Assembly (NCBI GenBank): GCA_020434085.1
Contig: JAGRBM010000286.1
Location: 1,246 to 65,245, forward strand
Length of the DNA: 64,000 bases
DNA from: Chrysiogenia bacterium
GTDB taxonomy: Bacteria > JAGRBM01
Direction of reading: 5' to 3'
The position numbers and the translations under genes were made by a program. Of this stretch, positions 19,989 through 44,602 are shown piece after piece. Under the pieces are notes generated by a model. It was not told the DNA's origin, did no database searches, and worked only from the letters and a program-made list of their open reading frames with translations. Positions within the stretch are counted from its first letter, which is position 1. Every line of letters begins with the position of its first letter.

Positions 19989-21821
19989 TCAGTCCAAATC
20001 ATAACCATTCATACCGCCTGCATCGCGCCATGCTTTTAATAGCTTGAAATAGGCCACGGGACCCGCGCCGTAGAACCCATCCTTGAGACTCCGCTGATCG
20101 GGTTTCCCCTCGTTGTTATAGTAACCTGGAGTGCATGATTCCAAAAACTTCACGCTCATTTTGCCCAATTTGACGATCTCCGCCACCCATTTTTCCTCGG
20201 CGTCGCGCGTGACTTCGATTCTTCTCTTTCCGTCCCTGAAACAGTGCATGAGAATGTGCGAGATGTGCCTTGATTGCTCGTCCATGTGATGCGGAAAATT
20301 GGCGGTAAATGCGGCCTGCGAGTTATTGAGAAAAAACATGTTCGGGAAACCGTGTGTGGCCATGCCATGGAGCGTCGCCATGCCGTCGGACCACTTTTCC
20401 GTCAGCGTCTGCCCGCCCTTGCCCCGGACCTCAAAACCCGCGCGTCGCGTAAAACTGGTTCCCACCTCAAACCCAGTGGCAAAGATCAGACAATCGAGTC
20501 GATACTCACGACCGTTGGCAACAACGCCGGCTTCCGTCACGCACTCCACACCCTGCCCATTGGTATCCACTAGGTGAACGTTCGGCCGATTGAAAGTGTC
20601 GAGATATTCGTCGTGAAAACATGGACGCTTGCAGAACTGACGATACCAGGGCTTAAGTGAATTCGCCGTTTTCCGGTCATGCACGACCTGATCCACCCGG
20701 TCTCGAATCTGGTTCATCTTCTGAAAGTCTGCAATCTCGACCTTTGCGCTGAGACTCTCTCGCGCCAGTGCACCCGAATTTCCATCGCGAATCATCCTCA
20801 TCAGATTTCCGATGATTTCGGTCCAGCCGTCATTTACAAGGTCTTCTTCCGCGATTCCTCCCGATGTGAGAAGCGTGAAGTTTCGGATCCGCTCCTTCTG
20901 CCAACCGGGCTTCAGGCTGTCGAACCACTTACGGTCGGTCTCACTGTCGTTCCGCGCGTCGATTGATGAAGGCGTCCGCTGAAAGACATAGAGTTCTTTG
21001 GAGGAAGCTCCGAGGTGGGGAACGCACTGCACCGCCGTCGCACCCGTACCGATGATTCCAACCGATTTATCCTTGAGTTTGTGCAGGTTTCCGCCAGCGT
21101 CACCGCCAGTGTAGTCAAAATCCCAGCGGCTTGTGTGGAACGTGTGACCAAGGAATTTTGAAATACCCCTGATTCCCGGCAATTTGGGACGGTTGAGCGG
21201 GCCCGGCGCAAGACACACGAACTTTGCGCGGATTCGATCCGTCCGGTTCGTCTGCAGGATCCACCGCGCTGCTTGCTCATCCCAATCGATCCAAGTCACT
21301 TCCGTCTGCAAGCACGCATTCTTATAGAGATCATACTTTTCCGCAATCGCCTTGCTATGCGCGAGGATCTCGGCAGCCCGTAAGTATTTCCTTGAGGGGA
21401 CGGTTCCTACTTCCTCGATCAGCGGGAGATAGATATACGACTCCACATCGCACGCCGCGCCGGGATAGCGGTTCCAGTACCAAGTGCCCCCGAAATCGCC
21501 ACCCTTTTCAATAATCCGGATGCTGCCCATTCCGGCTTCGCGCAGTCTGGCGCCGAGAATAAGTCCGCTGAACCCGCCGCCGACAATCACCACATCGACT
21601 TCATCGTGGAGCGGCGCGCGCACAAAACCGGGGTCGACATAGGAATCGTCAGCATAGTGTGAGAAATCGCCCGTTACCTCAAGATACTGCTCATTCCCGT
21701 CCTCCCGCAAGCGCTTGTCACGCTCGGCCCTGTACTTTTCTCGAAGCTCGGCGGGGTCGAAGCCCAACTCATCGGCGAGAGTGTGCCGGCCTGGCCTGTC
21801 CGCGTGCGATTGAGAGCTCAC
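19989..21821 (-). CDS. Type I Baeyer-Villiger monooxygenase (610 aa)
   Basis: Two Rossmann folds (VVIVGGGFSG; GIIGTGATAVQ) and the BVMO fingerprint FLGHTFHTSRWD. Confidence 0.85.
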   Translation of the reverse strand: MSSQSHADRPGRHTLADELGFDPAELREKYRAERDKRLREDGNEQYLEVTGDFSHYADDSYVDPGFVRAPLHDEVDVVIVGGGFSGLILGARLREAGMGSIRIIEKGGDFGGTWYWNRYPGAACDVESYIYLPLIEEVGTVPSRKYLRAAEILAHSKAIAEKYDLYKNACLQTEVTWIDWDEQAARWILQTNRTDRIRAKFVCLAPGPLNRPKLPGIRGISKFLGHTFHTSRWDFDYTGGDAGGNLHKLKDKSVGIIGTGATAVQCVPHLGASSKELYVFQRTPSSIDARNDSETDRKWFDSLKPGWQKERIRNFTLLTSGGIAEEDLVNDGWTEIIGNLMRMIRDGNSGALARESLSAKVEIADFQKMNQIRDRVDQVVHDRKTANSLKPWYRQFCKRPCFHDEYLDTFNRPNVHLVDTNGQGVECVTEAGVVANGREYRLDCLIFATGFEVGTSFTRRAGFEVRGKGGQTLTEKWSDGMATLHGMATHGFPNMFFLNNSQAAFTANFPHHMDEQSRHISHILMHCFRDGKRRIEVTRDAEEKWVAEIVKLGKMSVKFLESCTPGYYNNEGKPDQRSLKDGFYGAGPVAYFKLLKAWRDAGGMNGYDLD

Positions 21822-21824
21822 GTG

Positions 21825-23327
21825 TTATCTCGCATTCGTTTCGGAATCAGCCGGAGAAACGTACGCTCGCGCCCGATTCCGTCTGGTGAAACGAATGAAG
21901 CGGTCTTCAATCGGATCCTTCTTCAGCATCGGGATATCGCGATAGTAATCGTGCGTAAGCCTCCAGGGTCTGTGGCTTCCCTGGCGTGGCATGCGATATG
22001 CGGCCCGCCTGACGTAGCCAGACATGATTGAGCCCATCACGGTTTCGGATGTGCGGCACCCCTCGGTATCGATCGGCGTGGCTACCGAGTATTTCTTTTT
22101 ATCCATGTGCCGAAGCAACCGGCAGACATATTCCGCAGCCAGATCTGCACGCAACGTCCACGAGGCGTTGGTGTAGCCAATGACAATTGAAGCATTCGGC
22201 ACACCCTCGATCAAAACGCCCTTGTAGAGCATGGAGTCACCGGCGTGATGCGGCTTGCCGTCCACGACAAGCGTCATTCCGCCCAGGAACTGCAGGTCCA
22301 GGCCGGTGGCACTCACAATGATGTCCGCATGGAGTTCCTTGCCCGATTGCAGCAGAATTCCCTCCTTCGTGAACCTGGCTATCTGGTCGGTCACCACACT
22401 GGCCTTACCGCTGCGCAGAGCCTTGAAAAGATCCCCGCCCGGCATGGCGCAAATCCGCTCGTCCCAAGGATCATAATTGGGAGTAAAGTGCCGTATGTCG
22501 ATCTGCTTGCCGAGCTGGCGCCGCGCCAACGCAAGGATGATACTGCGAGCTTGGTCTGGAAACGCCCGTGAAGCAACGAAGCTCCACCGTTGCAGAGCGA
22601 TGTTCCGCTTTCGCATGATTCGATAAGCAACGCTGTCCGGAAGTAACGTCATCAGGCGGGCTGCCATTGGATCGACTTCAGGCAGCGACATCATGTACGT
22701 AGGCGAACGCTGCAACATCGTGATGTGCTCGGTTTTGTCGGCCATCGCCGGGAGCAGCGTTACCGCCGTTGCACCGCTACCGATGATTACAACGCGCTTG
22801 CCCTCGTAGTCGAGATCCTCCGGCCAATGCTGGGGGTGAATGACTCGCCCCTCGAAGTCCTTCTCACCGGGAAAATCGGGCTTATAGCCTTTGTCGTAGT
22901 TGTAATAACCTGTGCACAGCATGAGGAAGCCGGCGCTCCAGGTTTCCTCTTTGCCGTCATTTTCCCGCTTGGTTCTGATCGTCCAGCACTGATCCAAACT
23001 GTCCCAACAAGCATCGACAACCTTCCTGTCGTAGTGGATCTTTTTGTCAACCCCGTTTTCGACAGCAGTCTCCACGATGTAGCGCTTGATCGACGGGCCA
23101 TCGGCCAGAGTTTTTGGATCTGTCCACGGTCGGAAGTTATAGCCGAACGTAAACATGTCGGAATCCGACCGGATTCCAGGGTACTTGAAAAGATCCCAAG
23201 TTCCGCCCATGGACTCGCGGCGCTCGAGAATCGCAACCGATTTATTGGGACACTCACGCGCCAAGTGACACGCGGCCCCGATGCCTGAAATACCGGCGCC
23301 GACGATCAGGACGTCAAAATCTGGCAT
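21825..23327 (-). CDS. EthA/AlmA-like flavin-binding (Baeyer-Villiger type) monooxygenase
   Basis: N-terminus DVLIVGAGISGIGAACHL...ILERRESMGGTWDLFKYPGIRSDSDMFTFGYNFRPW closely follows the EthA/AlmA pattern; FEGRVIHPQHW fingerprint; 3-nt gap to the upstream gene. Confidence 0.85.
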   Translation of the reverse strand: MPDFDVLIVGAGISGIGAACHLARECPNKSVAILERRESMGGTWDLFKYPGIRSDSDMFTFGYNFRPWTDPKTLADGPSIKRYIVETAVENGVDKKIHYDRKVVDACWDSLDQCWTIRTKRENDGKEETWSAGFLMLCTGYYNYDKGYKPDFPGEKDFEGRVIHPQHWPEDLDYEGKRVVIIGSGATAVTLLPAMADKTEHITMLQRSPTYMMSLPEVDPMAARLMTLLPDSVAYRIMRKRNIALQRWSFVASRAFPDQARSIILALARRQLGKQIDIRHFTPNYDPWDERICAMPGGDLFKALRSGKASVVTDQIARFTKEGILLQSGKELHADIIVSATGLDLQFLGGMTLVVDGKPHHAGDSMLYKGVLIEGVPNASIVIGYTNASWTLRADLAAEYVCRLLRHMDKKKYSVATPIDTEGCRTSETVMGSIMSGYVRRAAYRMPRQGSHRPWRLTHDYYRDIPMLKKDPIEDRFIRFTRRNRARAYVSPADSETNAR

Positions 23328-23360
23328 CTGCCGCCACTCCGGCTTGCGCTCGCAAGCATT

Positions 23361-24152
23361 TCAGGCGACCTTGTACTGTTCAGCGAACCGGGCCTTCCAA
23401 GCCGATACGAGATCATAGCTGTCGTGCTGCCAGGGGTGAAATCCTGGGCGACCATATTCGAGCAGACGCGCTGCAGTCCGTCTCAAAAGTCCCGTACGTC
23501 TATTGAACAAATTTCTTCCAAGGCGGCGCCATGATTTGAAATTCAAGAGCTGGCCGTCAGAACCCATTACATAGATCATTACACCCAAGCCGACCGGGGC
23601 AAATGCCGCAGCAGCGACTGGAACGACCGCCAGGCGGCGCACATCTCCACCGCCGATCGCGCGAAATACGTCGAACGCGACAGCTTTGTGCTCGGTCTCT
23701 TCGATCGCATGCCAGAGCCACATTGAGCGTTGCGACGGGTGGATGTTCTTCTGAATCTCTTCGTTCCTGAGAACCTCCTCGGCCAACGTAGCGGTAAAAT
23801 GCTCGGCCATGCAGGTAAGCGCCAACTGATCCTTCTCGGGCACGTATTTCTTGACCAGGCCAAACGCAACCCCCAACCATTGGTCTAGTCGCTCAATATC
23901 AACTCCCGCTCCCCTCAATCGCCTGTTGTAGTCTACGTGCGCTTTTGTATGCAGCACTTCCTGGCCGATGAACGCTTTGACCTGCTTCTTGAGCACTGGG
24001 TCGGTCACGCGATCACGAAAATTCCGAACCGATTCAATAAAGAAAAGCTCTCCCTCCGGAAACAGCAACGATAGCATATGGAAAAAGTGCGAGGTCGCAG
24101 GGTCGTTATCGAAAAAATAGATCGGGCTATCTTCGATTTCACTCAGGTTCAT
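23361..24152 (-). CDS. Predicted metal-dependent hydrolase (PF10118-like)
   Basis: HFFHMLSLLFPEGELFF and HTKAH / EETEHK His-rich motifs; ATG at 24152. Confidence 0.55.
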   Translation of the reverse strand: MNLSEIEDSPIYFFDNDPATSHFFHMLSLLFPEGELFFIESVRNFRDRVTDPVLKKQVKAFIGQEVLHTKAHVDYNRRLRGAGVDIERLDQWLGVAFGLVKKYVPEKDQLALTCMAEHFTATLAEEVLRNEEIQKNIHPSQRSMWLWHAIEETEHKAVAFDVFRAIGGGDVRRLAVVPVAAAAFAPVGLGVMIYVMGSDGQLLNFKSWRRLGRNLFNRRTGLLRRTAARLLEYGRPGFHPWQHDSYDLVSAWKARFAEQYKVA

Positions 24153-24312
24153 CTTCCGAACTTCGATATCCGCGCCGAAGGGCAAAACTGTTGCCTGCAC
24201 CCCCTTTTTCCGCGATGATCGGGTCGGAACAACGGCTCGGCCACTTACATCATTTTTATGCGATGTCACCACGAAGTTTGATTGCATGTGATACACCTTA
24301 TCGAATTATTGC

Positions 24313-25590
24313 TCAGCCCTTCGCGGTTGCAATGGGGCCGCCCCAAACCGCCCGACGGTCCTGTTTTGCGAGCCATCGATTGATGATCGAGCCGACACCG
24401 CCGAAGATGTCATTGCCGAAGACGTCTCTCTCCCGCATCTCCATATCTTCGCTCAGTTCTCCAAGCCCCAGCAACGTGTAATCCCGGAAGCCTTCGTACT
24501 TTTCGGGCTCCAGCACGCGCACCCATCGGTTGAACAGGATGTTTGCGCCCATCAGAAACTCCGTACGTTCGAATGGGAGTTTGAACCCGGAGTTTTCTGC
24601 AAGGCGTGACACTTTCGAAAGAGTCTTTCCAAAGAAAGCAAATGTGTCGTATCCCAGCGTTTCGAACAGCGGTTTGAACTCAAGAATCAGCGGGGCGATT
24701 GGAACAAACATCATGGCGCGCGCCCACTTGTACCGTGCGCTGTGCGTAACATGGTGCGGAATATTGCCGAGCTTCGCGTAGGTCTGCGGGAACGCCGAAT
24801 GACGCGATTCGTCCATATGAAATCCTCGCATAATATGGCGCAGGCCTGGCTGGTTCTCGAGGAATCCGAAAATGCTCGTGGCGAATCCTTCCAGAACGAC
24901 ATTCATCCCGAACAGCTTGTGGTAATAATCCTTGCGAGCGATCGTCTCAAGCAGCGCCTTGCCGGCACCGCTCATCGGATAAATCCGGTCCAACGATTTG
25001 CACATTTCCCGCAGCGTGAAGAAGTGCTTGGCCTCTTCCATTACCTGCATTGCCATGCCGAGTTTTGCACCGGTGCCCTGGACCACCGGCATCAACGTCG
25101 CCGAGGTAAAGAGCGCGTATGCTTCGCCGTGGGTGATGAAGGATACAAGGCGCATCAGGGCTTCCCGCTGCTCTGGGCTGTGGGCCTCCTGAAACTCCCT
25201 TCGAACTTCCTCGGATGTGGCAATCCCAACCGACTCCTTGATTTCCTCGGTGAGGACCACGGGATCGAGACCGCTGGCCGCTGCAGTCACAGCGCCCCCT
25301 TTGCGGGCCACGTAGTCGGCCTTTGACGCATCGTGGATGTTCAGATACGGCGCAATCAGCTCCGCCTTCCAGATATGTGCAAGGGCCTTTTCATAGTTGC
25401 GCTGGGTAAGCAGTTCCATCTCCCCGCCATAGAAGGTCGCCGTGGTATCATCGTATCGATTGGCCATGTGCTTGGGATTGTCCGCCCATCGCCGGAACTG
25501 CGCATCCAAGAAGCGCTCATTCAGGACCTGGATACCCTGGATTCCGTATTTAAAAGCCGCGTCTGCTCGCTGTTGAGTCATGATTTCCAT
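24313..25590 (-). CDS. Ferritin-like diiron-carboxylate protein, paralog 1 (425 aa)
   Basis: Two E...ExxH sites (HGEAYALF...MEEAKHF; LEGFATSIF...MDESRHSAF); ATG at 25590 with a GAGGGA RBS. Confidence 0.7.
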   Translation of the reverse strand: MEIMTQQRADAAFKYGIQGIQVLNERFLDAQFRRWADNPKHMANRYDDTTATFYGGEMELLTQRNYEKALAHIWKAELIAPYLNIHDASKADYVARKGGAVTAAASGLDPVVLTEEIKESVGIATSEEVRREFQEAHSPEQREALMRLVSFITHGEAYALFTSATLMPVVQGTGAKLGMAMQVMEEAKHFFTLREMCKSLDRIYPMSGAGKALLETIARKDYYHKLFGMNVVLEGFATSIFGFLENQPGLRHIMRGFHMDESRHSAFPQTYAKLGNIPHHVTHSARYKWARAMMFVPIAPLILEFKPLFETLGYDTFAFFGKTLSKVSRLAENSGFKLPFERTEFLMGANILFNRWVRVLEPEKYEGFRDYTLLGLGELSEDMEMRERDVFGNDIFGGVGSIINRWLAKQDRRAVWGGPIATAKG

Positions 25591-25767
25591 AATTTCCCTC
25601 GTGCACAGATTTTTTTAGGTTTTATTGAAGTGGGGGGGCATCCGGATCTGCCCGCCGGAGCCCGACAGCCGTGTCGCACTCATGATCAAAACACTATTAC
25701 AAAACAGGCAATCAAGTCAAATAATTATTGCAACCCATTGATATTATTAACAAAAATAGTATAGTTA

Positions 25768-25796
25768 TTGCTATGCTTTAAAATGATGCTATAAAT
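25768..25796 (+). promoter_or_regulatory. Candidate sigma70-like promoter (TTGCTA-N16-TATAAAT) for diiron paralog 2
   Basis: Hexamers in an AT-rich divergent intergenic region, about 80 nt upstream of the ATG at 25879. Confidence 0.35.
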
Positions 25797-25803
25797 CGAC
25801 CAT

Positions 25804-25878: not shown

Positions 25879-27018
25879 ATGAACATGGAACGATATCTGG
25901 AAGAAAAACGTGTATCTTATGGAAACTTCGACGGCATCGAATGGAATGACCTGACCGAGGTCAAGAAAATGCGGGAGTCGACCCGCATCACCACTCCCTT
26001 GGATATCAACTGGACTTGGGACTACGTCGGGCAGGTCGAGGAACTCCGTCGCCTCTATGATATATCGAAACGCCGCATGTGGGATGCGGAACGAGATCTG
26101 GACTGGAGCGAACCGATCGACCGCTCCAAACAGTGGGGCCAACACCCCAAGACCAGTCCCATAGCGCAACTCTTACAGATGCGCGGCGCCGGCGAGGACG
26201 AAATTCGAGAAGCGACCTGGGAGAGTTTTGAATATACGTGTTCGCAGTTGCTTCATGGCGAACAGGCTGCTCTTGAGATCTGCGGGCAGCTTACCGCTGC
26301 CTGTCCGGATGTCGACATGAAATTTTTTGCCGGATCGCAGGTTTTCGACGAAGTCCGCCATATGGAGGTCTTTGCGAAATTCCTGCAGCGAAAACTCGGT
26401 AAAATCCACCCTCTGGATCCCAATGTGAAATTCCTGCTCGAAGAAATCATGAAGGCCGATTGCTGGGAGAAGAAGACTCTCGGGATGCAGACGCTCTTTG
26501 AAGGAATGGCCCTCGGCGTAATGGATATGATGAAGAACGCGAGCGATGTCCCGCTCTTCGATGAACTGATCACCCGCGTAATCCTCGACGAATCGCGCCA
26601 CGCTGCATTCGGAATCATCTCGATGAAGAGGGTCATGGAATCGTGCGAAACATCGCCCGAGATGAAAGCCGATCTGGAGGATTGGGCCTTCAACATCCTC
26701 GAGTGCCTGAATGCAGGCCAGTACTATGGCGTCATATCCGCTTTGGGGCCGAAGTACGGCATCGATGCACACAATGTGTCGGCCATGATGTACGCCTCGA
26801 CCGACGCGCTTGAAGCCAAAAGTGTGATCTACACCCATGCCGTAATCCCCCACCTCAAAAAACTCGGCCTGATTACCGAACGCACTGAAGAAAAGTATCG
26901 CGATGCGGGATTGATCAAGGATATCACAAAGGTGGGGACCTACTCCGTCACTACGGAGAATGCCTGGGACCAAGCACCCGTGTTGCCGATGGCCAACTCC
27001 GTCGCGGCCAAAAACTGA
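25879..27018 (+). CDS. Ferritin-like diiron-carboxylate protein, paralog 2 (380 aa)
   Basis: LHGEQAAL...FDEVRHMEVF and EGMALGV...LDESRHAAFG diiron motifs; ATG at 25879. Confidence 0.7.
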   Translation: MNMERYLEEKRVSYGNFDGIEWNDLTEVKKMRESTRITTPLDINWTWDYVGQVEELRRLYDISKRRMWDAERDLDWSEPIDRSKQWGQHPKTSPIAQLLQMRGAGEDEIREATWESFEYTCSQLLHGEQAALEICGQLTAACPDVDMKFFAGSQVFDEVRHMEVFAKFLQRKLGKIHPLDPNVKFLLEEIMKADCWEKKTLGMQTLFEGMALGVMDMMKNASDVPLFDELITRVILDESRHAAFGIISMKRVMESCETSPEMKADLEDWAFNILECLNAGQYYGVISALGPKYGIDAHNVSAMMYASTDALEAKSVIYTHAVIPHLKKLGLITERTEEKYRDAGLIKDITKVGTYSVTTENAWDQAPVLPMANSVAAKN

Positions 27019-27182
27019 ACGGAAGGCACTGGAATATCCTGACAGCCGTTTACGGGGAGCACTGGTGGCTCCCCGTAAACGGCCTGCATGCGCCGCTGCC
27101 GTGGGAGTGACGAGTCCCTTTCCCGAAAAGCTCTTGCGACTTCGGAGAGCTTTCTGTTCTGCACAGCAACCAGAGGCCAACC

Positions 27183-34150: not shown

Positions 34151-34951
34151 CTACATCATGTCCATTCCCATTCCGCACGTGACGCCGCCGTCCACTACAA
34201 GAGTCGTTCCCGTAACGAAATCAGCCAGGGGACTTGCCAGGAACACACAGGCCCTTGCGATGTCGTCAGGAACGCCGATTCTCTTCAACGGAGTGCGCTT
34301 CAGTAACGGTTTTCGAATCATGTCGGGAATCTCTTTTAGCCCCATTCTGAGCATCGGCGTATTGACGGCACCCGGACAGACCGCATTCACCCGAATTCCA
34401 TGCTGGCCAAGCTCCATTGCAAGCGCTTTTGTAAAGCCGACGACCCCGTGCTTGGACGAACAATATGCTGTGAGCAACGGCGATCCGATCAGCCCTTCAA
34501 CCGAAGAGATGCTGACAATCGCACCGCCTCGTTTTTTCAGCAAAGGGACCGCGGATCTGGAGCAGAAAAATATGCCGTTGAGGTTGGGACCGATCACTTC
34601 GTGCCATTGCTCGTCGGTTTGAAACTCGGCCAGGTTGCCTTTACCCACACCGGCGCAGTTTATGAGGGCGTCGAGCCGCCCGAATTCCTTTTCAATCGCC
34701 TTGGCACTCTGCATTGCTTGTTTCGAATCAGCGGTATTCGAGACTTCGATGATCACCTTCCGTCCGAACTGCGCCCGGATCAAATCTTTCGTTTCCTGCA
34801 GGCCTTCTTCATTCAGGTCGGTACCGTAAATGTCGGCACCGTGTGCGGCAAAACGCAGTGCAACACCGCGCCCAATTCCTGACGCTGCTCCCGTTACCCA
34901 GGCGATTTTGTCCGAGAAATCCGTTAGTCCGGTATCCATTACATCTGCCAA
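34151..34951 (-). CDS. Short-chain dehydrogenase/reductase (SDR)
   Basis: TGAASGIGRG cofactor motif; catalytic YCSSK; 266 aa. Confidence 0.9.
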   Translation of the reverse strand: MADVMDTGLTDFSDKIAWVTGAASGIGRGVALRFAAHGADIYGTDLNEEGLQETKDLIRAQFGRKVIIEVSNTADSKQAMQSAKAIEKEFGRLDALINCAGVGKGNLAEFQTDEQWHEVIGPNLNGIFFCSRSAVPLLKKRGGAIVSISSVEGLIGSPLLTAYCSSKHGVVGFTKALAMELGQHGIRVNAVCPGAVNTPMLRMGLKEIPDMIRKPLLKRTPLKRIGVPDDIARACVFLASPLADFVTGTTLVVDGGVTCGMGMDMM

Positions 34952-37397: not shown

Positions 37398-37452
37398 CAC
37401 CTGGAACCCAATCGACTGAGCCGCCGCTTGCGGCGGGAAGGGAACTTCTACA

Positions 37453-38700
37453 ATGGATTTCAACGATACCAAGCAGGAAAGCGAATTTCGGAATGAAGCA
37501 CGAGCGTGGCTCAACGCCAATGCCAAGAAACGAGAAGACTCCGAAGACTTCTTCAGCATGTTTTCCGAGCGTGACGATTCCAATATGGTCGAAGCCGCCA
37601 AGGCATGGCAGGCCAAGAAAGTGGATGCGGGATGGGCGGGCATCACCTGGCCAAAGAGCTTTGGCGGCAGAGGCGGTTCGCCGATGCAGTCCGTCATCTG
37701 GGGTCAAGAAGAGTCAAAATTCAATGTCCCGCCCAATATCTTTGCGATCGGCATCGGCATGGCGGGCCCGACCATCATGGCCCATGGGACCAAGGAGCAA
37801 AAAGAGCAGCTTCTTCCGCCCATGCTTCGGGGCGACGAGATCTGGTGTCAGCTGTTCAGTGAGCCGGGTGCCGGCTCCGATCTCGCCGGGCTGAAGACTC
37901 GCGCCGTCAAAGACGGTGATGTCTGGGTCATCAACGGCCAAAAAGTCTGGACCTCGGGGGCGCACTACTCGGACTGGGGAATTCTCGTAGCACGGACCGA
38001 CTTCGACGCACCCAAGCACAAGGGCATTACGTACTTTGTCGTCAATATGAAAAGCCCGGGGATCGAGGTCAGGCCCATCAAGCAGATATCGGGTGGAGCG
38101 AACTTCAACGAGGTGTTCTTCACGGACGTTCGAATTCCCGACTCCAACCGCCTGGGCGGCGTGAACAAGGGTTGGCCGGTGGCTCTGACCACATTGATGA
38201 ACGAACGTTTCACAATTGGTGGCGGCGGCATGATGGGCGGCGGATTTGGGTTTGAAGACCTGGTCCAGCTAGCCAAGAAATTCGGTCAAAATGGCACCGC
38301 TGCGTACGGCGACATCGGTGTGCGCCGACGCCTTGCCGACATATACATTCGCTCCAAGGGACTTCAATACACCGGATATCGCGCCATCACGGCGCTCTCC
38401 AAGGGTGGGATACCCGGCCCCGAAGCCTCCGGCGGAAAGCTCATTTTTGGACAACTTTTGCAGGACATGGCGGCGCTGGCGCTCGAAATTCAGGGCCCCG
38501 TCGGCAGCCTGACCGAGGCATCGATCACGGCGCAGAATGCCGTGTGGCAAGAAGCCTTCATGTGGGCGCCCGGTATTCGCATTGCCGGCGGCACCGATGA
38601 AGTTCTTCGCAACATCATCGGCGAACGCGTACTCGGACTTCCAGGTGACGTTCGTGTTGATAAGGATGTGCCGTTCAGCAAAATCCCTTCGGGAAACTAG
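37453..38700 (+). CDS. Acyl-CoA dehydrogenase family protein (415 aa)
   Basis: ACAD architecture; GQKVWTSGA motif; adjacent to a second ACAD, a possible heteromeric pair. Confidence 0.85.
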   Translation: MDFNDTKQESEFRNEARAWLNANAKKREDSEDFFSMFSERDDSNMVEAAKAWQAKKVDAGWAGITWPKSFGGRGGSPMQSVIWGQEESKFNVPPNIFAIGIGMAGPTIMAHGTKEQKEQLLPPMLRGDEIWCQLFSEPGAGSDLAGLKTRAVKDGDVWVINGQKVWTSGAHYSDWGILVARTDFDAPKHKGITYFVVNMKSPGIEVRPIKQISGGANFNEVFFTDVRIPDSNRLGGVNKGWPVALTTLMNERFTIGGGGMMGGGFGFEDLVQLAKKFGQNGTAAYGDIGVRRRLADIYIRSKGLQYTGYRAITALSKGGIPGPEASGGKLIFGQLLQDMAALALEIQGPVGSLTEASITAQNAVWQEAFMWAPGIRIAGGTDEVLRNIIGERVLGLPGDVRVDKDVPFSKIPSGN

Positions 38701-38785
38701 CGCTGGAACTGCGCGCGTGTGCAGCCGCACAAAAGTTCCGGTCCGGTGATCGACCGCGAAGGGGAACAATCGAAGGGGAACAATA

Positions 38786-40348
38786 ATGAATGAGAAACTT
38801 CCGCTCGGATTCTGGCAGTGGGCACAGAAGGCGCCGGATCGGCATGGACTCGTCTCCCCTGATGGTAAGGAATATTCGGCGGGCGAGTTGCTTCAATTGA
38901 TCAACCAGCTATCGCATGGCCTGCGGTCCTTGGGGCTTCAAAAGGGCGACGGGATCGCAATGATGTTGGGAAACGGTACGGAATGGGTCGCATTGGCCCT
39001 CGCAGCATCACAGATCGGACTTTATTATACGCCGATTAATTATCACCTCACCGGGGAGGAAGCCGCTTACATCGTCGACGATTGCGAAGCGAAAGTCCTG
39101 ATAGTCGACGCCGCCTACTCCGATGCCGCACGTGTCATCGCGCAGCAGGCATCACTCCCTCAGGACCGGCGGTTTTCCGTGGGTTCTGTTGAGGGCTACC
39201 GGCCTTTTTCAGAAATTCACCAGGGCCAGCCAACGGACCTGCCTGAGAATCGCCTGGCAGGCCAGAATATGAACTACACGTCTGGAACGACTGGAAAACC
39301 CAAAGGTGTCCGACGACCGCTCATGCCCGCTACCCCTGAGCAAGCGGCACAGTTGGGAACACTGCTGGCCGGTCTCTTCAACATACCAGCTGGTTCCTAC
39401 GACGGGGTACATCTATGTGCCGGACCGCTCTACCACACCGCGCCCGGCGCCTTTAGCCTGATGGGTCTGCATCTTGGCCAGTCACTGGTGCTGATGCATC
39501 GATGGGATCCCGAGAAAACACTTGAACTGATCGATAAATTTCGCGTAACAACCACCCATCTGGTCCCGACCATGTTTCACAGAATGCTCGCACTGCCCGA
39601 TGAGGTCAAATCCAGATACAAGTTCGATTCCCTCAGGAGCGTCATTCATGCTGCTGCACCCTGTCCTCCGGATATCAAGCACCGAATGATCGAATGGTGG
39701 GGCCCGGTAATCTATGAATACTACGGCGCCACTGAAGGCGGCGGAACGTCGGTAAAACCCAAGGAATGGCTTCAGCATCCGGGTACCGTGGGGCGCGCAT
39801 GGCCGGGTTCCACGATCAAGGTTCTTGACGATGAAGGGAATGAGTGCCCACCGAACACTCAGGGAACGGTCTATATGGGGTCACCCATCGGATCCTTCGA
39901 GTACTACAAGGACCCGAAGAAGACGAACGAGAATCGCCGGAAAGACCTTTTCACTGTGGGAGATATTGGTTACCTGACCGAAGACGGCTTTCTCTTCCTG
40001 TGCGACAGAAAGTCAGACATGATCATCGCCGGCGGTGTGAACATCTACCCGGCAGAAATTGAAGCCGTCTTTCTTTCCCATCCCAAAGTCGCAGATGTGG
40101 CTGTTTTTGGAGTCCCCGACAACGATATGGGAGAGAGTGTCTACGCAGTGATCCAGCTCAGTGAAGGATCAGAGGATCTCGATGCCTTGAAGAATGAGCT
40201 CAATAAGTTTGCCGAGGCAAAGTTGGCCAAATTCAAGTTGCCGCGCGGGATGGAGTTCCGGAAAGAACTCCCTCGTGAGCCCAGTGGCAAACTTTTCAAA
40301 CGAAAACTTCGCGACGAGTTCTGGAAACATTCGGGTCGGCACATCTAG
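38786..40348 (+). CDS. Acyl-CoA synthetase (AMP-binding, fatty-acid-CoA ligase)
   Basis: YTSGTTGKPKGV AMP-binding motif; 520 aa. Confidence 0.9.
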   Translation: MNEKLPLGFWQWAQKAPDRHGLVSPDGKEYSAGELLQLINQLSHGLRSLGLQKGDGIAMMLGNGTEWVALALAASQIGLYYTPINYHLTGEEAAYIVDDCEAKVLIVDAAYSDAARVIAQQASLPQDRRFSVGSVEGYRPFSEIHQGQPTDLPENRLAGQNMNYTSGTTGKPKGVRRPLMPATPEQAAQLGTLLAGLFNIPAGSYDGVHLCAGPLYHTAPGAFSLMGLHLGQSLVLMHRWDPEKTLELIDKFRVTTTHLVPTMFHRMLALPDEVKSRYKFDSLRSVIHAAAPCPPDIKHRMIEWWGPVIYEYYGATEGGGTSVKPKEWLQHPGTVGRAWPGSTIKVLDDEGNECPPNTQGTVYMGSPIGSFEYYKDPKKTNENRRKDLFTVGDIGYLTEDGFLFLCDRKSDMIIAGGVNIYPAEIEAVFLSHPKVADVAVFGVPDNDMGESVYAVIQLSEGSEDLDALKNELNKFAEAKLAKFKLPRGMEFRKELPREPSGKLFKRKLRDEFWKHSGRHI

Positions 40349-40371
40349 GCGACTTACGTGGGGATTATTTC

Positions 40372-41568
40372 GTGGCAAAGCACAGAACATCAATCCGCGG
40401 GCAGGCAGCCATCGTCGGCGCGCATGATATCGTCTCACCTACCGGGAAGCTCGATGGAACCGAGAGACAGCTGGAAGTTCGGGCGATTCGCGCCGCGCTG
40501 GACGATGCGGGTCTGAAGCTGAGTGACGTGGATGGGTTGCTCTGCACCGGCATGATGATGCCTTCCATGGATCTCGCAGAACATCTCGGGATCCAACCTC
40601 GGTACACCGATACCACGATGACCGGAGGTTCGAGTTTTGAGGTAATGGTCGAGCACGCCGCTCTGGCCATCACCTGCGGGCTTTGCGAGGTTGCCATCAT
40701 CGTCTATGCAGCAACCCCGCGTGCCAAGGGCGGCGGGCGAAAGTACGCCGCGATGATGCAGGCAATGATGGAACCGGGAAACCCACCGCCCATGGCGGAG
40801 TGGGAATTGCCATACGGCCTGCTGAGTCCGTCCGGAGCGTACGCGCTTGCCGCAAGCAGGCACATGCATGTTTATGGCACGACTCCGGAACAACTTGCTC
40901 AGATCGCCGTTTCGACACGGCAATGGGCGAGCATGAACAAGAATGCAAGATATCAGGAGCCGATCACCATTGATGACGTCCTGGCATCCCCCTACGTAGC
41001 AGAACCTTTACATCGCCTTGATTGTTGCCTTGTTACAGACGGTGCCGGTGCAATTGTCATGACTTCGGCCGAGCGTGCGAAGGATTTGAGGAAACCGCCG
41101 GTGTACGTTCTCGGTGCGGCAACCCACCATGACCACGCCATGATGATCGCACAGATGCCCGATCTGACACGGACCGCCGGAGCTGTCTCCGGGCCGCGAG
41201 CGTTCGAGATGGCCGGGATCACCCCCAGGGACGTCGATGTTTTCGAGGGATATGATTCCTTTACGATTACCTTGCTTTTGCACCTCGAAGATCTGGGATT
41301 TTGCCCGAAGGGCGAAGGCGGTCGGTTTGTCGAAGGAAATCGACTCGGCCCCGGAGGGTCACTACCCACCAATACCAACGGCGGAGGACTCTCATACACC
41401 CATCCAGGAATGTATGGAATGTTCCTGCTTGTCGAGGCGACAAGACAGCTGCGTGGCGAATGCAACGACCGCCAGGTCTCTGATGCTGAAATTGCCGTAG
41501 CTCACGGATGTGGCGGCATCCTTTCATCAACGGGGACGATTGTTCTTGGAACGGAGGGCACGCTTTGA
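40372..41568 (+). CDS. SCP-x / nsLTP-type thiolase (thiolase-like protein)
   Basis: 398 aa; thiolase fold with a C-terminal HGCGG-like region; paired with the downstream DUF35 protein, as in SCP-x/Ltp systems. Confidence 0.75.
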   Translation: MAKHRTSIRGQAAIVGAHDIVSPTGKLDGTERQLEVRAIRAALDDAGLKLSDVDGLLCTGMMMPSMDLAEHLGIQPRYTDTTMTGGSSFEVMVEHAALAITCGLCEVAIIVYAATPRAKGGGRKYAAMMQAMMEPGNPPPMAEWELPYGLLSPSGAYALAASRHMHVYGTTPEQLAQIAVSTRQWASMNKNARYQEPITIDDVLASPYVAEPLHRLDCCLVTDGAGAIVMTSAERAKDLRKPPVYVLGAATHHDHAMMIAQMPDLTRTAGAVSGPRAFEMAGITPRDVDVFEGYDSFTITLLLHLEDLGFCPKGEGGRFVEGNRLGPGGSLPTNTNGGGLSYTHPGMYGMFLLVEATRQLRGECNDRQVSDAEIAVAHGCGGILSSTGTIVLGTEGTL

Positions 41569-41576
41569 GCGGACGA

Positions 41577-41978
41577 ATGTCAGTCGGGACGTCCGGGACG
41601 GGTACCCCCTTTTGGGATGCCACCCGGGAAAAGCGCCTTGTTTTGCAATGGTGCAAGGCTTGCGACCGCGCAATTTTCTACCCACGAGATTTCTGCCCGA
41701 ATTGCTTGGGGGAGGAACTGGTCTGGGAAGACGCGAAAGGCACCGGAGTTGTTTATGCCCTTAGCGTCATGCACAAGCCCGGCAATCCTCTAATGGCCCA
41801 GAGAGTTCCATATATCGTCGCGATCATCGAGCTTGCCGAGGGCGTACGTATGCTGTCGACAGTCGTGGGCGACGGACGGATCACTGCAAAGGTAGGCGAT
41901 AAGGTACGGGTTTCCTGGGAAGATCTCAATGATGGTCGCTATCTTCCGGTGTTCGAACTAATCGCTCGGACATCCTGA
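41577..41978 (+). CDS. DUF35 OB-fold / zinc-ribbon protein (thiolase partner)
   Basis: CKACDRAIFYPRDFCPNC zinc ribbon followed by an OB-fold; ATG at 41577, 9 nt after the thiolase stop. Confidence 0.7.
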   Translation: MSVGTSGTGTPFWDATREKRLVLQWCKACDRAIFYPRDFCPNCLGEELVWEDAKGTGVVYALSVMHKPGNPLMAQRVPYIVAIIELAEGVRMLSTVVGDGRITAKVGDKVRVSWEDLNDGRYLPVFELIARTS

Positions 41979-41992
41979 TCAGAGGATATCCC

Positions 41993-43411
41993 ATGCTTCA
42001 TAACCGTGTCATCCGCAGCGTTGTTTCCGTCCTGTTTTTCACCCGTATCCTGATGAGCTACGTCTGGTTCGGGATGGTTACTCAGAAGCGCATTCCCAGA
42101 GGCCAGGGCATGCGACGCAGGGCTTTGGAATCACTGCACGAGATCAATGCAAAGAGAATGTATGGCTATTTTGTTCGCCTGAAGGGCGTATATATCAAAA
42201 TCGGCCAATTCCTCTCCACCCAGGCCGCTTTCTTGCCTCCGGCCTATCTCATTGAAATGGTCAAGATGCAGGATCAAAACCCGATCGCTCATGAGTCGGC
42301 AATTCGCACGCGAATTGTGGAGGAGTTCGGTGCACAACCAGAAGAGATCTTCGCCCGATTTGACGCCGCACCTTTGGCTTGCGCCTCGATCGGGCAGGTT
42401 CACCGTGTTCGACTCAAGGATGGGCGCCAGGCGGTTCTAAAGGTGAAATATCCCGGCATCGACCGGTTCTTTTTTGCAGACCAGAAAGTCGTAAAGCTGA
42501 TGCTGCCCTGGTTTATTCGGATTCTTGAATACGGCCTTTATCAGGAGTCCACCGGCATCAATTACAACGCGCTGATCGACGAATTCGTCAAATACATCAG
42601 CAAAGAGTTGGATTATCGCAACGAAGTACTCAATCAGGAGAGGATGTACGAACAGTTGGAGGGAATGCGCAACAGGCGTATGGTGGCCATTCCACGGCTC
42701 TACAAGGAGTATTGCCGTGACTCCATCATCTGCATGGAGTTCATTGATGCCCTGAAAATAGTGCCGTGGTATACGAACCCCAAAGTCCCCAATCAGAAGA
42801 AAGACTGGATTTTTCGGTGCATGGTCGAGTGCCTGTTCTATACCATTGCGTACCACGGCTTCTTTCAGGCTGACACGCATCCTGGCAATTTTATGGTGCT
42901 GGATGACGATCCGGAGAATCCCGATGTCCCAGCGACACTGGTGATGCTGGATTTCGGGTGCACCAAGGATTTCCCGGAAGGATTCCGCCTCGGGGTTGTC
43001 GAAGTCGTCAATGGATATCTGACGAAGATGCCCGAGAAGATCACTGCCGCGCTGTGGAAACAGGGATTTCGCACCAAGTTACAGACACTCGAATCCCTCG
43101 AATTGTGGGTAACCCAAGGCGTCGGAGTTACAGACGAGATTCTCGGATTCTTTCGGGACGGCACCGATATCGTCGAACACTTGCGCCACAACCTCGCCGA
43201 AATGGCTTCTGAATTTCTTGAACTTCACGACGCTCACCGGATCGCTGCAGTCCCGGAGCATTACGCATTGCTCGCACGCGTGATCGCTACGGCACCGGTT
43301 CCGCTTGAGGAATACATGCCGCGGGTGGATTTCCTGCCGATTGCGCTCACATATGTCAGCGTACTTGCAAGCAAGGCACGCGAGGACTCGCCTCGAGCGG
43401 CCGCATCATAG
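41993..43411 (+). CDS. ABC1/UbiB (Coq8-like) atypical protein kinase
   Basis: IKIGQFLST, ASIGQVHRVRL (Lys region), HADTHPGNFMV catalytic motif. Confidence 0.8.
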   Translation: MLHNRVIRSVVSVLFFTRILMSYVWFGMVTQKRIPRGQGMRRRALESLHEINAKRMYGYFVRLKGVYIKIGQFLSTQAAFLPPAYLIEMVKMQDQNPIAHESAIRTRIVEEFGAQPEEIFARFDAAPLACASIGQVHRVRLKDGRQAVLKVKYPGIDRFFFADQKVVKLMLPWFIRILEYGLYQESTGINYNALIDEFVKYISKELDYRNEVLNQERMYEQLEGMRNRRMVAIPRLYKEYCRDSIICMEFIDALKIVPWYTNPKVPNQKKDWIFRCMVECLFYTIAYHGFFQADTHPGNFMVLDDDPENPDVPATLVMLDFGCTKDFPEGFRLGVVEVVNGYLTKMPEKITAALWKQGFRTKLQTLESLELWVTQGVGVTDEILGFFRDGTDIVEHLRHNLAEMASEFLELHDAHRIAAVPEHYALLARVIATAPVPLEEYMPRVDFLPIALTYVSVLASKAREDSPRAAAS

Positions 43412-43486
43412 CTCATGATACTCCGGCTGGGACCGCCGGGAGTTTGACCATGAATACCAAGCGAACATGCAGGGAGATATAGGCCG

Positions 43487-44602
43487 ATGAGTACAAAGAA
43501 GACCTCGAAAAAGAGTAATAACACCGAGAAAAGACGAGCTTCTACCAAAACGGGCAAACCCGTCGGTTCGCAGCGGGTTCGTGGCAAAACGCTGGTGACC
43601 GGCGCCGCCGGTTTTATCGGCTCTCATGTCGTACGTGAGTTGCTCAAAGAGGGCAGAGAAGTCCGCGCCTTGGTAATGCCCGGAGAGAATCGAAAAAACC
43701 TGGAAGCACTGGATGTCGAAATCGTAGAGGGAAATCTTCTAGAGCCCTCCACTCTCAAACCGGCTGTAACGGGCTGCTCGCGCATTCACCATTTGGCCGC
43801 CATTTATGCGATCTGGCTCCCGCGACGAGAGAAGATGTTCGAAGTCAACTGCATCGGCTCGTTGAACCTTCTCTGGGAAGCCTATCATCAGTCGGTCGAA
43901 AAACTCGTCTTTACATCGTCGATCGCGGCAGTAGGCATCAAGCCCGGCAAGACGCCCGCAAAGGAGGACGACCGATTTAACCAGGTGGCTGCGGCAAACG
44001 ATTACGTCAACTCCAAATGGCTTTCTGAAGAGGAGGCGAAGACCTTTGTTCGCCAGGGAATGGACATTTCGTTCTGCAACCCCGGATTTCCCTTTGGCGC
44101 AAGAGACGTCGCGCCGACCCCGACCGGCCAGATATTGCTCGATATCGTGAATGGGAAGAATCGATTCTACTTTGACGCGGGATTTTCCGCAGTGGACGTT
44201 GAAGATGTGGCACGGGGTCACGTACTGGCTGAAAAACACGGAAAGCCTGGTGAACGCTACATCCTTTCAAATCACAATCTGACGTTCAAGGAATTTTACG
44301 ATTTGATTTCCGACGTGAGTGGTGTTCGGCACAAGGCGAGGAAACTCCCGATCCAGTTCGCCGCTCCCCTTGGTGATTGGCTTGAGCGCCGGGCCGATCA
44401 AACAGGCAAACGGCCTGTGCTGACGGGAAGCGGTATTCGCTATGCGAACAACTACCTGTACTTCGATAACTCGAAAGCGCGCAACGAACTGGGCCTGACA
44501 TTCACGCCGATTGAGGACAGCATCAGACGCGCAATTTCATGGTTTGCGGAGAACCGCTACATCACGAACCAGGAGTTTCTTCGGCGCTACCGGAATTGCT
44601 GA
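43487..44602 (+). CDS. NAD-dependent epimerase/dehydratase family (extended SDR)
   Basis: TLVTGAAGFIGSHVV Rossmann motif; 371 aa. Confidence 0.8.
   Translation: MSTKKTSKKSNNTEKRRASTKTGKPVGSQRVRGKTLVTGAAGFIGSHVVRELLKEGREVRALVMPGENRKNLEALDVEIVEGNLLEPSTLKPAVTGCSRIHHLAAIYAIWLPRREKMFEVNCIGSLNLLWEAYHQSVEKLVFTSSIAAVGIKPGKTPAKEDDRFNQVAAANDYVNSKWLSEEEAKTFVRQGMDISFCNPGFPFGARDVAPTPTGQILLDIVNGKNRFYFDAGFSAVDVEDVARGHVLAEKHGKPGERYILSNHNLTFKEFYDLISDVSGVRHKARKLPIQFAAPLGDWLERRADQTGKRPVLTGSGIRYANNYLYFDNSKARNELGLTFTPIEDSIRRAISWFAENRYITNQEFLRRYRNC

Follow-up and report, generated by a model that had tools for sequence, protein, structure and literature searches.

A genomic island encoding Baeyer-Villiger monooxygenases, ferritin-like diiron proteins and a thiolase-fold protein in a Chrysiogenia bacterium: gene content and a possible route of lipid oxidation

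The 64,000 nucleotides of DNA analysed here (the window in the following) originate from an uncultured diderm Chrysiogenia bacterium (assembly GCA_020434085.1, contig JAGRBM010000286.1, positions 1,246 to 65,245 of the forward strand) and harbor a probable catabolic island encoding three Baeyer-Villiger monooxygenases (BVMOs), seven ferritin-like diiron proteins and a group of CoA-ester enzymes. The inventory of genes is based on a listing of open reading frames (ORFs) together with Pfam and NCBIfam scans across the window. An initial annotation of positions 19989-44602 had proposed a subterminal oxidation of ketones to esters combined with beta-oxidation. The island itself has a span of ~43 kb (window ~19.4-62.1 kb) and extends beyond that region.

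Oxygenases and operon layout of the island

Three tight same-strand gene runs with the ends given by the initial annotation are present, and the start of the di361 gene at 36015 agrees with its homologues. Operon 1 (minus strand, 25590 to 19989, with gaps of 3-33 bp) comprises the BVMO genes B610 and B500 and the genes for a PF10118 protein and for Fer425. Divergent from it are the genes for di396 and for a standard acyl-CoA dehydrogenase (ACAD; 27183-28334). Operon 2 (minus strand, 36015 to 28565) contains the genes for di361, a short-chain dehydrogenase/reductase (SDR), a metallo-beta-lactamase (MBL)-fold hydrolase, an aldehyde dehydrogenase (ALDH), di298, a PaaI/4HBT thioesterase and the BVMO B516. 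Operon 3 (plus strand, 36285 to 44602) encodes an ACAD pair, an acyl-CoA ligase, a thiolase-fold protein, a DUF35 protein, the ABC1-family protein ABC1a and an HpnA/SdmB-like enzyme. It had been claimed that genes of the diiron, BVMO and beta-oxidation classes are mixed in each operon. This does not hold, as BVMO and diiron genes are both absent from operon 3 and a gene for a CoA-ester enzyme is absent from operon 1.

The three BVMO genes are located where they had been predicted:

19989-21821, minus strand: BVMO B610, PockeMO/PtlE/large-ketone clade (best PDB match 5mq6, PockeMO, E 5e-132)
21825-23327, minus strand: BVMO B500, EthA/AlmA-like architecture, with BVMO fingerprints
28565-30115, minus strand: BVMO B516, classical type I (matches CHMO/PAMO at ~236 bits)

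The FxGxxxHxxxW[P/D] fingerprint reads FLGHTFHTSRWD in B610, FEGRVIHPQHWP in B500 and FEGKLIHTAKWD in B516, and all three proteins also carry the second fingerprint [A/G]GxWxxxx[F/Y]P[G/M]xxxD and two GxGxx[G/A] Rossmann motifs. Their homology to solved BVMOs is full-length or N-terminal. B500 aligns to solved type I BVMOs only over the N-terminal ~215 aa, a pattern which we take to be typical of the EthA/AlmA group. B516 is 36-47% identical to BVMOs from a plasmid cluster of strain NBB4 and 39% identical to a BVMO from a Moraxellaceae metagenome-assembled genome (MAG), and B610 scores 795 bits against the NCBIfam PtlE model, below its cutoff of 1100. Judged by their sequences, the three proteins are type I BVMOs of three sub-types, which by family membership would convert ketones to esters or lactones.

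AlmA-type BVMOs have been shown experimentally to convert 2-alkanones to esters (PMC12388405). The AlmA-like B500 speaks for n-alkanes or methyl ketones as substrates, with a conversion of alkane to 2-alkanol, 2-alkanone and alkyl acetate, the PF10118 and MBL-fold proteins serving as esterases and a thiolytic beta-oxidation completing the route. We consider this explanation rather unlikely, and part of the evidence against it comes from B610, which is PockeMO/PtlE-like. The nearest relatives of B610, PockeMO (a polycyclic ketone monooxygenase) and PtlE, favor a different substrate, namely a cyclic or polycyclic terpenoid of steroid-, hopanoid- or sesquiterpenoid-like type. This would be hydroxylated by cytochrome P450 and diiron enzymes, converted to ring ketones by dehydrogenases, opened at its rings to lactones by the BVMOs, cleaved by MBL-fold lactonases and freed of a carboxylic side chain by aldolytic steps of the Scd-Shy-Sal-Sad kind known from bile-acid catabolism. 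Three BVMOs would also parallel the camphor pathway. On the whole of the evidence given below, such a substrate is a doubtful proposition as well.

The seven diiron proteins represent three families, i.e. PF10118, group A (di298, di361 and u291) and group B (Fer425, di396 and di377):

23361-24287, minus strand: PF10118 protein, ferritin-like, of diiron oxygenase type, misnamed 'metal-dependent hydrolase' (Pfam 271.7 bits, cutoff 33.2)
24313-25590, minus strand: Fer425, group B, 425 aa, without Pfam family, diiron ligands invariant in the family alignment
25879-27018, plus strand: di396, group B, diiron motif, weak AurF match, 29% identical to Fer425
30604-31500, minus strand: di298, group A, diiron motif, 37% identical to di361 and u291
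35014-36015, minus strand: di361, group A, diiron motif
50514-51647, plus strand: di377, group B, diiron motif, weak Ald_deCOase match
53809-54684, plus strand: u291, group A, diiron motifs, 40% identical to di361

The diiron paralogs of the initial annotation are confirmed, with E..DExRH..E..DExxH motifs, and the ligand set E...ExxH...E...ExxH is invariant in alignments of all three families. In the alignment of 40 PF10118 members, the residues E83, E113xxH116, E165 and E200xxH203 are invariant and correspond to the classical diiron-carboxylate ligands. The predicted model of the PF10118 protein resembles the diiron oxygenases CmlI and AurF with their four-helix-bundle core, and a Pfam match to AurF was also obtained for one PF10118 homologue. 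The protein had been counted as a third ester hydrolase, but in its ligands as well as in its predicted fold it corresponds to a diiron oxygenase, with no hydrolase fold or active site. The family name is thus misleading, and the supposed third esterase is more likely a fourth kind of oxygenase. This removes an esterase from the n-alkane route outlined above. The predicted model of Fer425, closest to aldehyde-deformylating oxygenase and to R2lox (R2-like ligand-binding oxidase), is in turn a point in favor of n-alkanes.

Within group A the proteins share 37-40% identity, and Fer425 is 26-29% identical to di396 and di377. Proteins of group A are very rare: an indexed search with di361 among 5.8e9 proteins gave 7 clusters, and an exhaustive search of 1.84e9 proteins with the group A profile gave 126 representatives at E<=1e-3 and 17 at E<=1e-30. 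A search for the Fer425 family gave 82 clusters, all from MAGs or metagenomes. Profile-profile comparison connected group A and Fer425 weakly (E 0.003) and PF10118 with neither, so that we treat the three, on grounds of motif and fold, as separate families of one superfamily. Pfam similarity of the diiron proteins to known diiron families is marginal, with E-values of 1e-3 to 1e-5 below the gathering scores, and none of them matched the COQ7 family. The diiron paralogs or the P450 had been named as possible hydroxylases. Hydroxylation is indeed the best-supported role that the diiron proteins may have, but the P450 gene is located outside the region in question and is frameshifted.

CoA-ester enzymes, accessory genes and borders of the island

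The genes for the conversion of CoA esters are mostly found in operon 3:

27183-28334, plus strand: ACAD, homomeric type, with all three ACAD domains
30164-30607, minus strand: PaaI/4HBT hot-dog thioesterase (PF03061 and TIGR00369 above cutoff, HGG motif)
36285-37397, plus strand: ACAD, small subunit-like, PimD/IpdE2-like (Pfam/NCBIfam)
37453-38700, plus strand: ACAD, large subunit-like, PimC-like (Pfam/NCBIfam)
38786-40348, plus strand: acyl-CoA ligase (AMP-ligase), FadD4/PRK12406-like (Pfam/NCBIfam)
40372-41568, plus strand: thiolase-fold protein, Ltp2/Sal-like, with T84-G-G-S-S and Y294DSF
~41577-41978, plus strand: stand-alone DUF35 protein of ~133 aa, C4 zinc ribbon and OB domain (PF12172, PF01796; Cys49/52/63/66)

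The initial annotation described an SCP-x thiolase with a DUF35 partner. A thiolase-fold protein and its DUF35 partner are present, but the catalytic cysteines are missing and the protein is no working thiolase. At the site of the nucleophilic cysteine the sequence reads T84-G85-G86-S87-S88 and aligns with the GG of CtSal including Gly89. The HDCF motif of SCP2-thiolases, with its acid/base cysteine, is replaced by Y294-D-S-F, which aligns with Y294DHF of TcLtp2 and Y302DCY of CtSal. Motifs of the GGSS and YDSF types are kept in the homologues of the loci L006 and L022. Among the solved relatives are 4u4e (397 bits, the best match), CtSal (9myr) and TcLtp2 (6ok1). PDB entry 4u4e, deposited only as 'Thiolase', has GGSS and YDSF as well and therefore also lacks the catalytic residues of a thiolase. 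In the aldolases, the tyrosine of Y294DHF (Ltp2) or Y302DCY (Sal) acts as catalytic base and glycine replaces the thiolase nucleophile (PMC12329534); Sal "cannot catalyze thiolytic cleavage" (PMC12329534). Going by these residues, the protein of the island is unable to perform thiolysis and is probably a retro-aldolase.

The three ACADs and the acyl-CoA ligase of the earlier gene list are all confirmed, and of the two hot-dog thioesterases one is encoded in the region, while the only other hot-dog protein found, DUF4442, is encoded at 12700-13224. A complete beta-oxidation route is not encoded: the ACADs are accompanied neither by a hydratase nor by a functional thiolase, and the sole dehydrogenase candidate is a generic SDR. 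What had been termed beta-oxidation is probably non-canonical and aldolytic. The missing nucleophilic cysteine, the lack of a hydratase or FadA/FadB-type enzyme and the PimCD/IpdE-like ACAD pair all argue against the degradation of n-alkanes. With the ACAD pair, ligase and DUF35 protein, and the ALDH in the divergent operon, the genes are similar to the module by which steroid side chains are degraded aldolytically (Scd-Shy-Sal-Sad). The heteromeric-type ACAD pair, the Ltp2/Sal-like protein with DUF35, the ligase and the ALDH hence count for a terpenoid substrate, against which stand the lack of a MaoC-DUF35 hydratase and of ring-degradation genes of the KstD, KshAB, HsaA-D and TesB types, and scores of steroid-specific NCBIfam models that are all far below their cutoffs.

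Further enzymes are encoded between these genes and to their right:

31541-32911, minus strand: class-3-like ALDH (PF00171 285 bits, ALDH3-like GQTCIAPDY motif)
32929-34017, minus strand: MBL-fold hydrolase 1, candidate esterase/lactonase (PF00753, intact HSHVDH, weak PDB relatives)
34151-34951, minus strand: classical SDR, candidate secondary-alcohol or 3-hydroxyacyl dehydrogenase (Pfam/NCBIfam)
41993-43411, plus strand: ABC1/UbiB-family atypical kinase ABC1a (PF03109 173 bits)
43487-44602, plus strand: HpnA/SdmB-like NAD-dependent extended SDR (TIGR03466 323 bits, cutoff 368), in the same operon in L022 with 91% identity
47478-48536, minus strand: MBL-fold hydrolase 2 (PF00753, HAHPDH)
51709-53781, plus strand: ABC1/UbiB-family atypical kinase ABC1b (PF03109 218 bits)
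54694-55431, plus strand: Coq4-family protein (PF05019 103 bits)
55453-56699, plus strand: P450, CYP109/107-like, frameshifted in a C7 run near 55745

The predicted SDR and ALDH genes were both found. Two MBL-fold candidate ester hydrolases had been claimed for the region; both exist, but only the first is encoded there. Candidate activities for the formation of a ketone, its oxidation and the hydrolysis of the ester are thus encoded in one operon by the SDR, BVMO and MBL hydrolase genes, the latter with an intact HxHxDH motif. The ALDH3-like character of the ALDH would suit n-alkanes, whereas the HpnA/SdmB/3beta-HSD-like gene in operon 3 would suit a terpenoid. The best solved relatives of the P450 are of CYP109/CYP107 type and not CYP153, and its further likeness to CYP125 and vitamin D hydroxylases again points to terpenoids. 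Scanning of ORFs over the 64-kb window revealed no gene for AlkB, CYP153, LadA, a soluble diiron monooxygenase or rubredoxin, which together with a frameshifted P450 of CYP109/107 type is unfavorable to n-alkanes.

Genes of the Coq4 and ABC1/UbiB families (two of the latter), an HpnA-like gene, a PlsC-type acyltransferase gene and an MMPL transporter gene would also be expected if the island remodeled or synthesised one of the cell's own membrane lipids, e.g. of quinone, hopanoid or wax type, and degraded no growth substrate. We regard this as quite improbable. Genes for prenyltransferases, methyltransferases, cyclases, polyketide synthases and fatty acid synthases are lacking, degradative families dominate (BVMOs, hydrolases, ALDH, ACADs and ligase), and the ABC1 proteins are far below the UbiB cutoffs; ABC1a, for instance, reaches 176 bits against the UbiB equivalog TIGR01982 (cutoff 488) and is a match to the general ABC1 domain only. 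The lower GC content, the variable junctions and the integrase and transposase genes of variants described below likewise fit accessory catabolic DNA.

The promoter regions of the island share an operator-like sequence:

25760-25774, divergent promoter region next to operon 1: operator-like half-palindrome TATAGTTATTGCTAT; ATAG-N5-GCTAT is also present in the orthologous promoter regions of L016-L021
36106-36121, between operons 2 and 3: perfect operator-like 16-bp palindrome TATAGCATTTGCTATA, kept in the orthologous intergenic regions of L006 and L007

The motif ATAG-N5-GCTAT occurs in both divergent promoter regions of the window and is confined to orthologous promoter regions in relatives (L006 7445-7458; L016 6001-6014). 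The island is probably co-regulated, with the two regulators listed below, TetR and MerR-TPR, as candidates for binding the palindrome. In addition, a strong GC-rich inverted repeat, CCGTTTACGGGGAGC...GCTCCCCGTAAACGG, is located directly after di396 (window ~27045-27085) and is, by its sequence, likely a terminator separating di396 from the ACAD gene.

Beyond 44602, the island comprises genes for PlsC, a histidine kinase, MBL-fold hydrolase 2, DUF2505 and the MerR-TPR regulator, followed by an operon of di377, ABC1b, u291, Coq4 and P450 genes and finally by transporter genes and TetR:

49050-50531, minus strand: MerR-TPR regulator (domain scan)
56898-61470, minus strand: DUF1302-like, LolA-like/DUF1329-like and MMPL/RND transporter genes (Pfam matches), for the transport of hydrophobic substrates
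61486-62112, minus strand: TetR regulator at the right end of the low-GC island

In P. putida, mutation of DUF1302/DUF1329 genes lowers the fitness on fatty esters. The MMPL transporter matches the sterol-sensing domain, a further point for a terpenoid.

The GC content is 52-58% from ~18 to 62 kb as compared with 60-66% in the flanks, with shifts at ~18-19 kb and ~62 kb. The left junction is located at window ~19358-19368: in the assemblies L001-L004, which are nearly identical to the window, the match reaches down to ~19366, and L001 and L003 continue past this point, each into different DNA. A phage-type integrase gene adjoins the left junction of one variant (L003 8475-10224) and an rve transposase gene that of a 98%-identical strain (L026 15894-17213). 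Because of its lower GC content, the variable junctions and these adjoining genes, we consider the island to be probably a mobile genomic island. A search for att-like direct or inverted repeats at the island ends detected none beyond 13-mers consistent with chance, and tRNA and Rfam scans of the window found nothing. The higher-GC flank also harbors lipid-type genes at 10807-14872 (NUDIX, alpha/beta hydrolase, DUF4442 hot-dog protein, DUF2505 and aldo-keto reductase), with a second copy of DUF2505 at 48548-49045 in the island.

Gene neighbourhoods in relatives and in unrelated taxa

The initial annotation argued for a coordinated pathway rather than a chance neighbourhood, and the linkage of the genes indeed goes beyond chance, since the set recurs in rearranged form in relatives and as partial modules in unrelated taxa. 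L006, MAG contig CAZMGV010000028.1 (L016/L022) and L026 all carry the whole set in one place, with the genes arranged in different orders. In L006, a JGI contig, 18 kb contain the order ABC1-DUF35-thiolase-like-ligase-ACAD-ACAD, divergent from di361-SDR-Fer425-MBL-(di298 remnant)-4HBT-PF10118-BVMO-BVMO. The proteins are mostly 58-84% identical to those of the window, PF10118 with only 39%. Contig CAZMGV010000028.1 carries three BVMOs and all modules in 31.9 kb, and its ABC1b-u291-Coq4-P450 block adjoins MBL-SDR. In a 79-aa ORF of L006 (11940-12179), an internal deletion has brought the two termini of a di298 homologue together. As a di298 remnant, unrelated to the 79-aa ORFs of L013 and L015, it was rejected as a conserved small partner.

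The neighbourhoods of PF10118 genes were sampled at 80 metagenome loci, 39 of them at least 10 kb long. A BVMO gene follows PF10118 on the same strand within ~3.5 kb downstream at 12 of the 80 loci and at 10 of the 39 longer ones (GC 42-73%); the chance background for such an adjacency is roughly estimated at <1%. The linked BVMO is either adjacent and of B500 type (four unrelated loci, GC 42-71%) or of B516 type and followed by an SDR. More generally, genes for a diiron protein, an SDR and a BVMO occur as a triad next to PF10118 or group A genes in independent lineages, in many cases together with a hydrolase gene. One Moraxellaceae MAG, for example, has AraC divergent from three PF10118 genes, a BVMO and an alpha/beta hydrolase gene.

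On plasmid pMYCCH.01 of Mycolicibacterium chubuense NBB4 (L111, record 470342-485085; MYCCH_RS28275-28335), a TetR gene is divergent from PF10118, and a tight operon encodes an SDR, a group A diiron protein, two BVMOs and an alpha/beta hydrolase, with ligase, ACAD and biotin-dependent acyl-CoA carboxylase genes near. The diiron protein scores 87.6 bits against the group A profile. This cultured strain could possibly serve as an experimental proxy for the island.

An ABC1-diiron association is also found elsewhere. In a 790-aa protein encoded on a high-GC metagenome contig (L092, 1598-3970, minus strand), an ABC1 kinase is fused to an AurF-like diiron domain. The neighbours of its gene up to 13922 include a second ABC1 gene, a group A diiron gene, a PF10118 gene and a MlaE/Mce lipid-uptake operon. 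The fused diiron domain is homologous to di396, and the arrangement mirrors the order di377, ABC1b, u291 of the window.

Other contexts differ. A plasmid of A. haemolyticus that originates from oil-contaminated soil (L109, record 109835-124620) has a Tn3-flanked unit with an AraC-ferredoxin-P450-reductase operon and, behind it, genes for PF10118, TetR, a BtrH-N protein and two PaaI thioesterases, another pairing of PF10118 with PaaI and in a hydrocarbon context. The presence of PF10118 beside this P450 operon is the comparative evidence in favor of n-alkanes. Two Pseudomonadales MAGs encode di361 homologues of 36-37% identity; in L024 only PF10118 and MMPL genes are beside it, and L025 has no synteny to the island. 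Distant Fer425 homologues (L008-L015, in MAGs labelled Bdellovibrionota, Deltaproteobacteria and Solirubrobacterales) usually adjoin a TetR or other helix-turn-helix gene, in L013-L015 with a 79-aa ORF and an alpha/beta hydrolase gene near. No BVMO was found in L008-L015, so that Fer425 is not universally linked to BVMOs. A tblastn search of plasmids with Fer425 gave short, weak matches only, and a literature search on PF10118/COG3687, on clusters of BVMO, ferritin-like and ABC1 genes and on an isoprenoid-ketone route gave nothing usable.

These neighbourhoods bear on two of the alternatives. The recurrence of PF10118-BVMO-SDR modules in very varied contexts speaks against a specifically terpenoid function. 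They also argue against the notion that there is no pathway at all and that the island is a chance patchwork of horizontally acquired oxidoreductases. Variation of the operon order among relatives and the decay of di298 in L006 and of the P450 gene here would agree with a patchwork. Since the families stay together through several rearrangements, a palindrome is common to the promoter regions and Moraxellaceae, Mycolicibacterium and various metagenome contigs contain sub-modules as well, we hold it to be highly improbable.

Proposed pathway and comparison with known systems

The explanation that best accounts for the whole is that the island serves to oxidise the internal carbons of a long alkyl or isoprenoid chain, hydrophobic and soluble in the membrane, to which explanation we assign a probability of about 0.5. 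The diiron oxygenases of PF10118, group A and group B would hydroxylate a C-H bond, with a possible contribution of the P450 where it is intact. By analogy with Coq8, Coq4 and Coq7 and with the L092 fusion, the ABC1/UbiB-type ATPases and the Coq4-like protein may extract the membrane-dissolved lipid and present it to these enzymes. The SDR would then oxidise the secondary alcohol to a ketone, from which the three type I BVMOs would form an ester or lactone, and the MBL-fold hydrolases would cleave the ester. At the family level, ALDH is expected to produce acids and the ligase CoA esters. Desaturation by the PimCD-like ACAD pair would be followed by retro-aldol cleavage through the thiolase-fold/DUF35 pair, giving an acyl-CoA and a new aldehyde or ketone that could return to ALDH or to the BVMOs.

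The ketone-to-ester logic of the initial annotation, from SDR through BVMO, hydrolysis and aldehyde/acid oxidation to CoA activation, is thereby supported at the family level and by comparative genomics. The n-alkane or wax substrate is not, given the lack of AlkB, CYP153 and LadA and the relationships of B610 and of the ACAD pair. Nothing specific speaks for the suggested likeness to the mycobacterial chemistry that leads from keto-lipids to wax esters. The aldolase step, the PockeMO-like BVMO and the PimCD-like ACADs tilt the balance towards a branched or bulky lipid. An aldolase step is expected where the beta-carbon is tertiary or hindered, e.g. in 3-methyl-branched isoprenoid acids yielding methyl ketones.

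Several observations weigh against oxidation of such a chain by the enzymes in question. Within the thiolase-fold protein, Ser296 occupies the position of Cys304 in Sal, and His344 that of Tyr344 in Ltp2, with Tyr342 nearby. The C304S change abolishes the activity of CtSal, and Ltp2 has histidine at this motif position (PMC12329534). With serine as the third motif residue, it is not certain that the protein acts as an aldolase. True thiolase complexes (BbsAB, archaeal thiolase/HMGS) also have a stand-alone DUF35 protein, and that of the island is not fused to a MaoC hydratase. The ORFs scanned in the window, those of the island included, do not encode an enoyl-CoA hydratase (ECH/MaoC) that could feed an aldolase, nor a ferredoxin or reductase to serve the diiron proteins or the P450. 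The P450 frame is broken by a 1-base shift in the C7 run (55745-55752) relative to the intact 415-aa homologue of L016, which is either an assembly error or a sign of a pseudogene. As to regulation, the palindrome motif was derived from the two sites of the window itself, so its statistic is circular. Close relatives with the cluster are 60-98% identical, and their synteny therefore partly reflects common descent. Approximately 75-85% of the PF10118 loci have no BVMO nearby, and since PF10118 paralogs of Acinetobacter (A. baumannii) are located in housekeeping contexts, the BVMO link is limited to a subset of the family.

A more far-reaching version of the internal oxidation of a lipid chain is possible, and we put it forward tentatively: PF10118, group A and the Fer425 family might be the missing soluble subterminal hydroxylases, working with ABC1 and Coq4 proteins as a machine resembling the CoQ (coenzyme Q) synthome that pulls chains from the bilayer, while a YDSF aldolase would regenerate carbonyls and allow C-C cleavage without a thiolase. 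The secondary-alcohol-forming enzyme of AlmA-type pathways is poorly documented, as stated explicitly in PMC12388405. Subterminal oxidation by BVMOs being established chemistry, the island nominates candidates for its first step, namely PF10118, a large family annotated as 'metal-dependent hydrolase', and two ferritin-like families without a Pfam model. The YDSF class of thiolase-fold proteins, including 4u4e, may extend aldolytic cleavage of the Ltp2/Sal type beyond steroids, and the ABC1-diiron neighbourhood and fusion hint at a general role of bacterial ABC1 paralogs in lipid presentation. For annotation, "hydrolase" should be dropped for PF10118 and "acetyl-CoA acetyltransferase" for YDSF proteins.

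Among known systems, the AlmA/EthA subterminal route for long-chain alkanes in Acinetobacter (PMC12388405; Yin et al. 2024 as cited there) shares the architecture and fingerprints of B500 and the ketone-to-ester logic. The Moraxellaceae MAG, with PF10118 genes and AraC/TetR regulators beside BVMOs, adds to this likeness. The island differs by its three BVMO sub-types, seven diiron proteins, ABC1/Coq4 genes and non-thiolytic CoA module, and it lacks an alpha/beta esterase. The acmAB genes of Gordonia TY-5 (Kotani 2007, as cited in PMC6304351) and mekAB of P. veronii are two-gene units of a BVMO and an alpha/beta-type esterase for acetone and butanone. The island likewise combines a BVMO with an ester hydrolase, but its hydrolase candidates have the MBL fold and the context points to large lipids. 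The chn, cdd and cam operons combine a dehydrogenase, a BVMO, a hydrolase and an alcohol or aldehyde dehydrogenase, and camphor catabolism involves multiple BVMOs and a P450. The enzyme set of the island, with multiple BVMOs and a P450, is similar to these and, with B610 in the bulky-ketone clade, to PockeMO and PtlE; type II BVMOs and an alpha/beta lactonase are lacking, and the PtlE score stays below the equivalog cutoff. The pMYCCH.01 cluster corresponds to the island in TetR divergent from PF10118, SDR, group A diiron protein, two B516-type BVMOs, hydrolase, ligase and ACAD. It differs in having an alpha/beta instead of an MBL-fold hydrolase and an acyl-CoA carboxylase instead of the thiolase-fold/DUF35 pair, with no ABC1 or Coq4 gene in view.

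The aldolase systems Ltp2-ChsH2(DUF35) and Sal-Shy(DUF35) with Sad and Scd (PMC12329534) share with the island the thiolase fold, glycine at the nucleophile site, the tyrosine of YDxF, DUF35, an ACAD pair, a ligase and an ALDH. They differ by YDHF (Ltp2) or YDCY (Sal) in place of YDSF and by Tyr344 of Ltp2 in place of His344; moreover, the DUF35 protein of the island is stand-alone and a MaoC hydratase and steroid-ring genes are lacking. With AurF/CmlI and aldehyde-deformylating oxygenase, the diiron proteins have the four-helix core and the ligand pattern in common, at marginal sequence similarity. Like the Coq7-Coq8(UbiB)-Coq4 set of CoQ synthesis, one operon of the island unites ABC1, diiron and Coq4-family genes, although without a COQ7 match. 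The island shares its chemistry with the first three BVMO systems and its C-C cleavage logic with the steroid aldolases, and is fully defined by none of these. Genuinely new are three diiron families that had not been characterised, one of which carries a wrong annotation across genomes, the connection of these families with ABC1 proteins, and the occurrence of a thiolase-fold protein with YDSF outside a steroid context.

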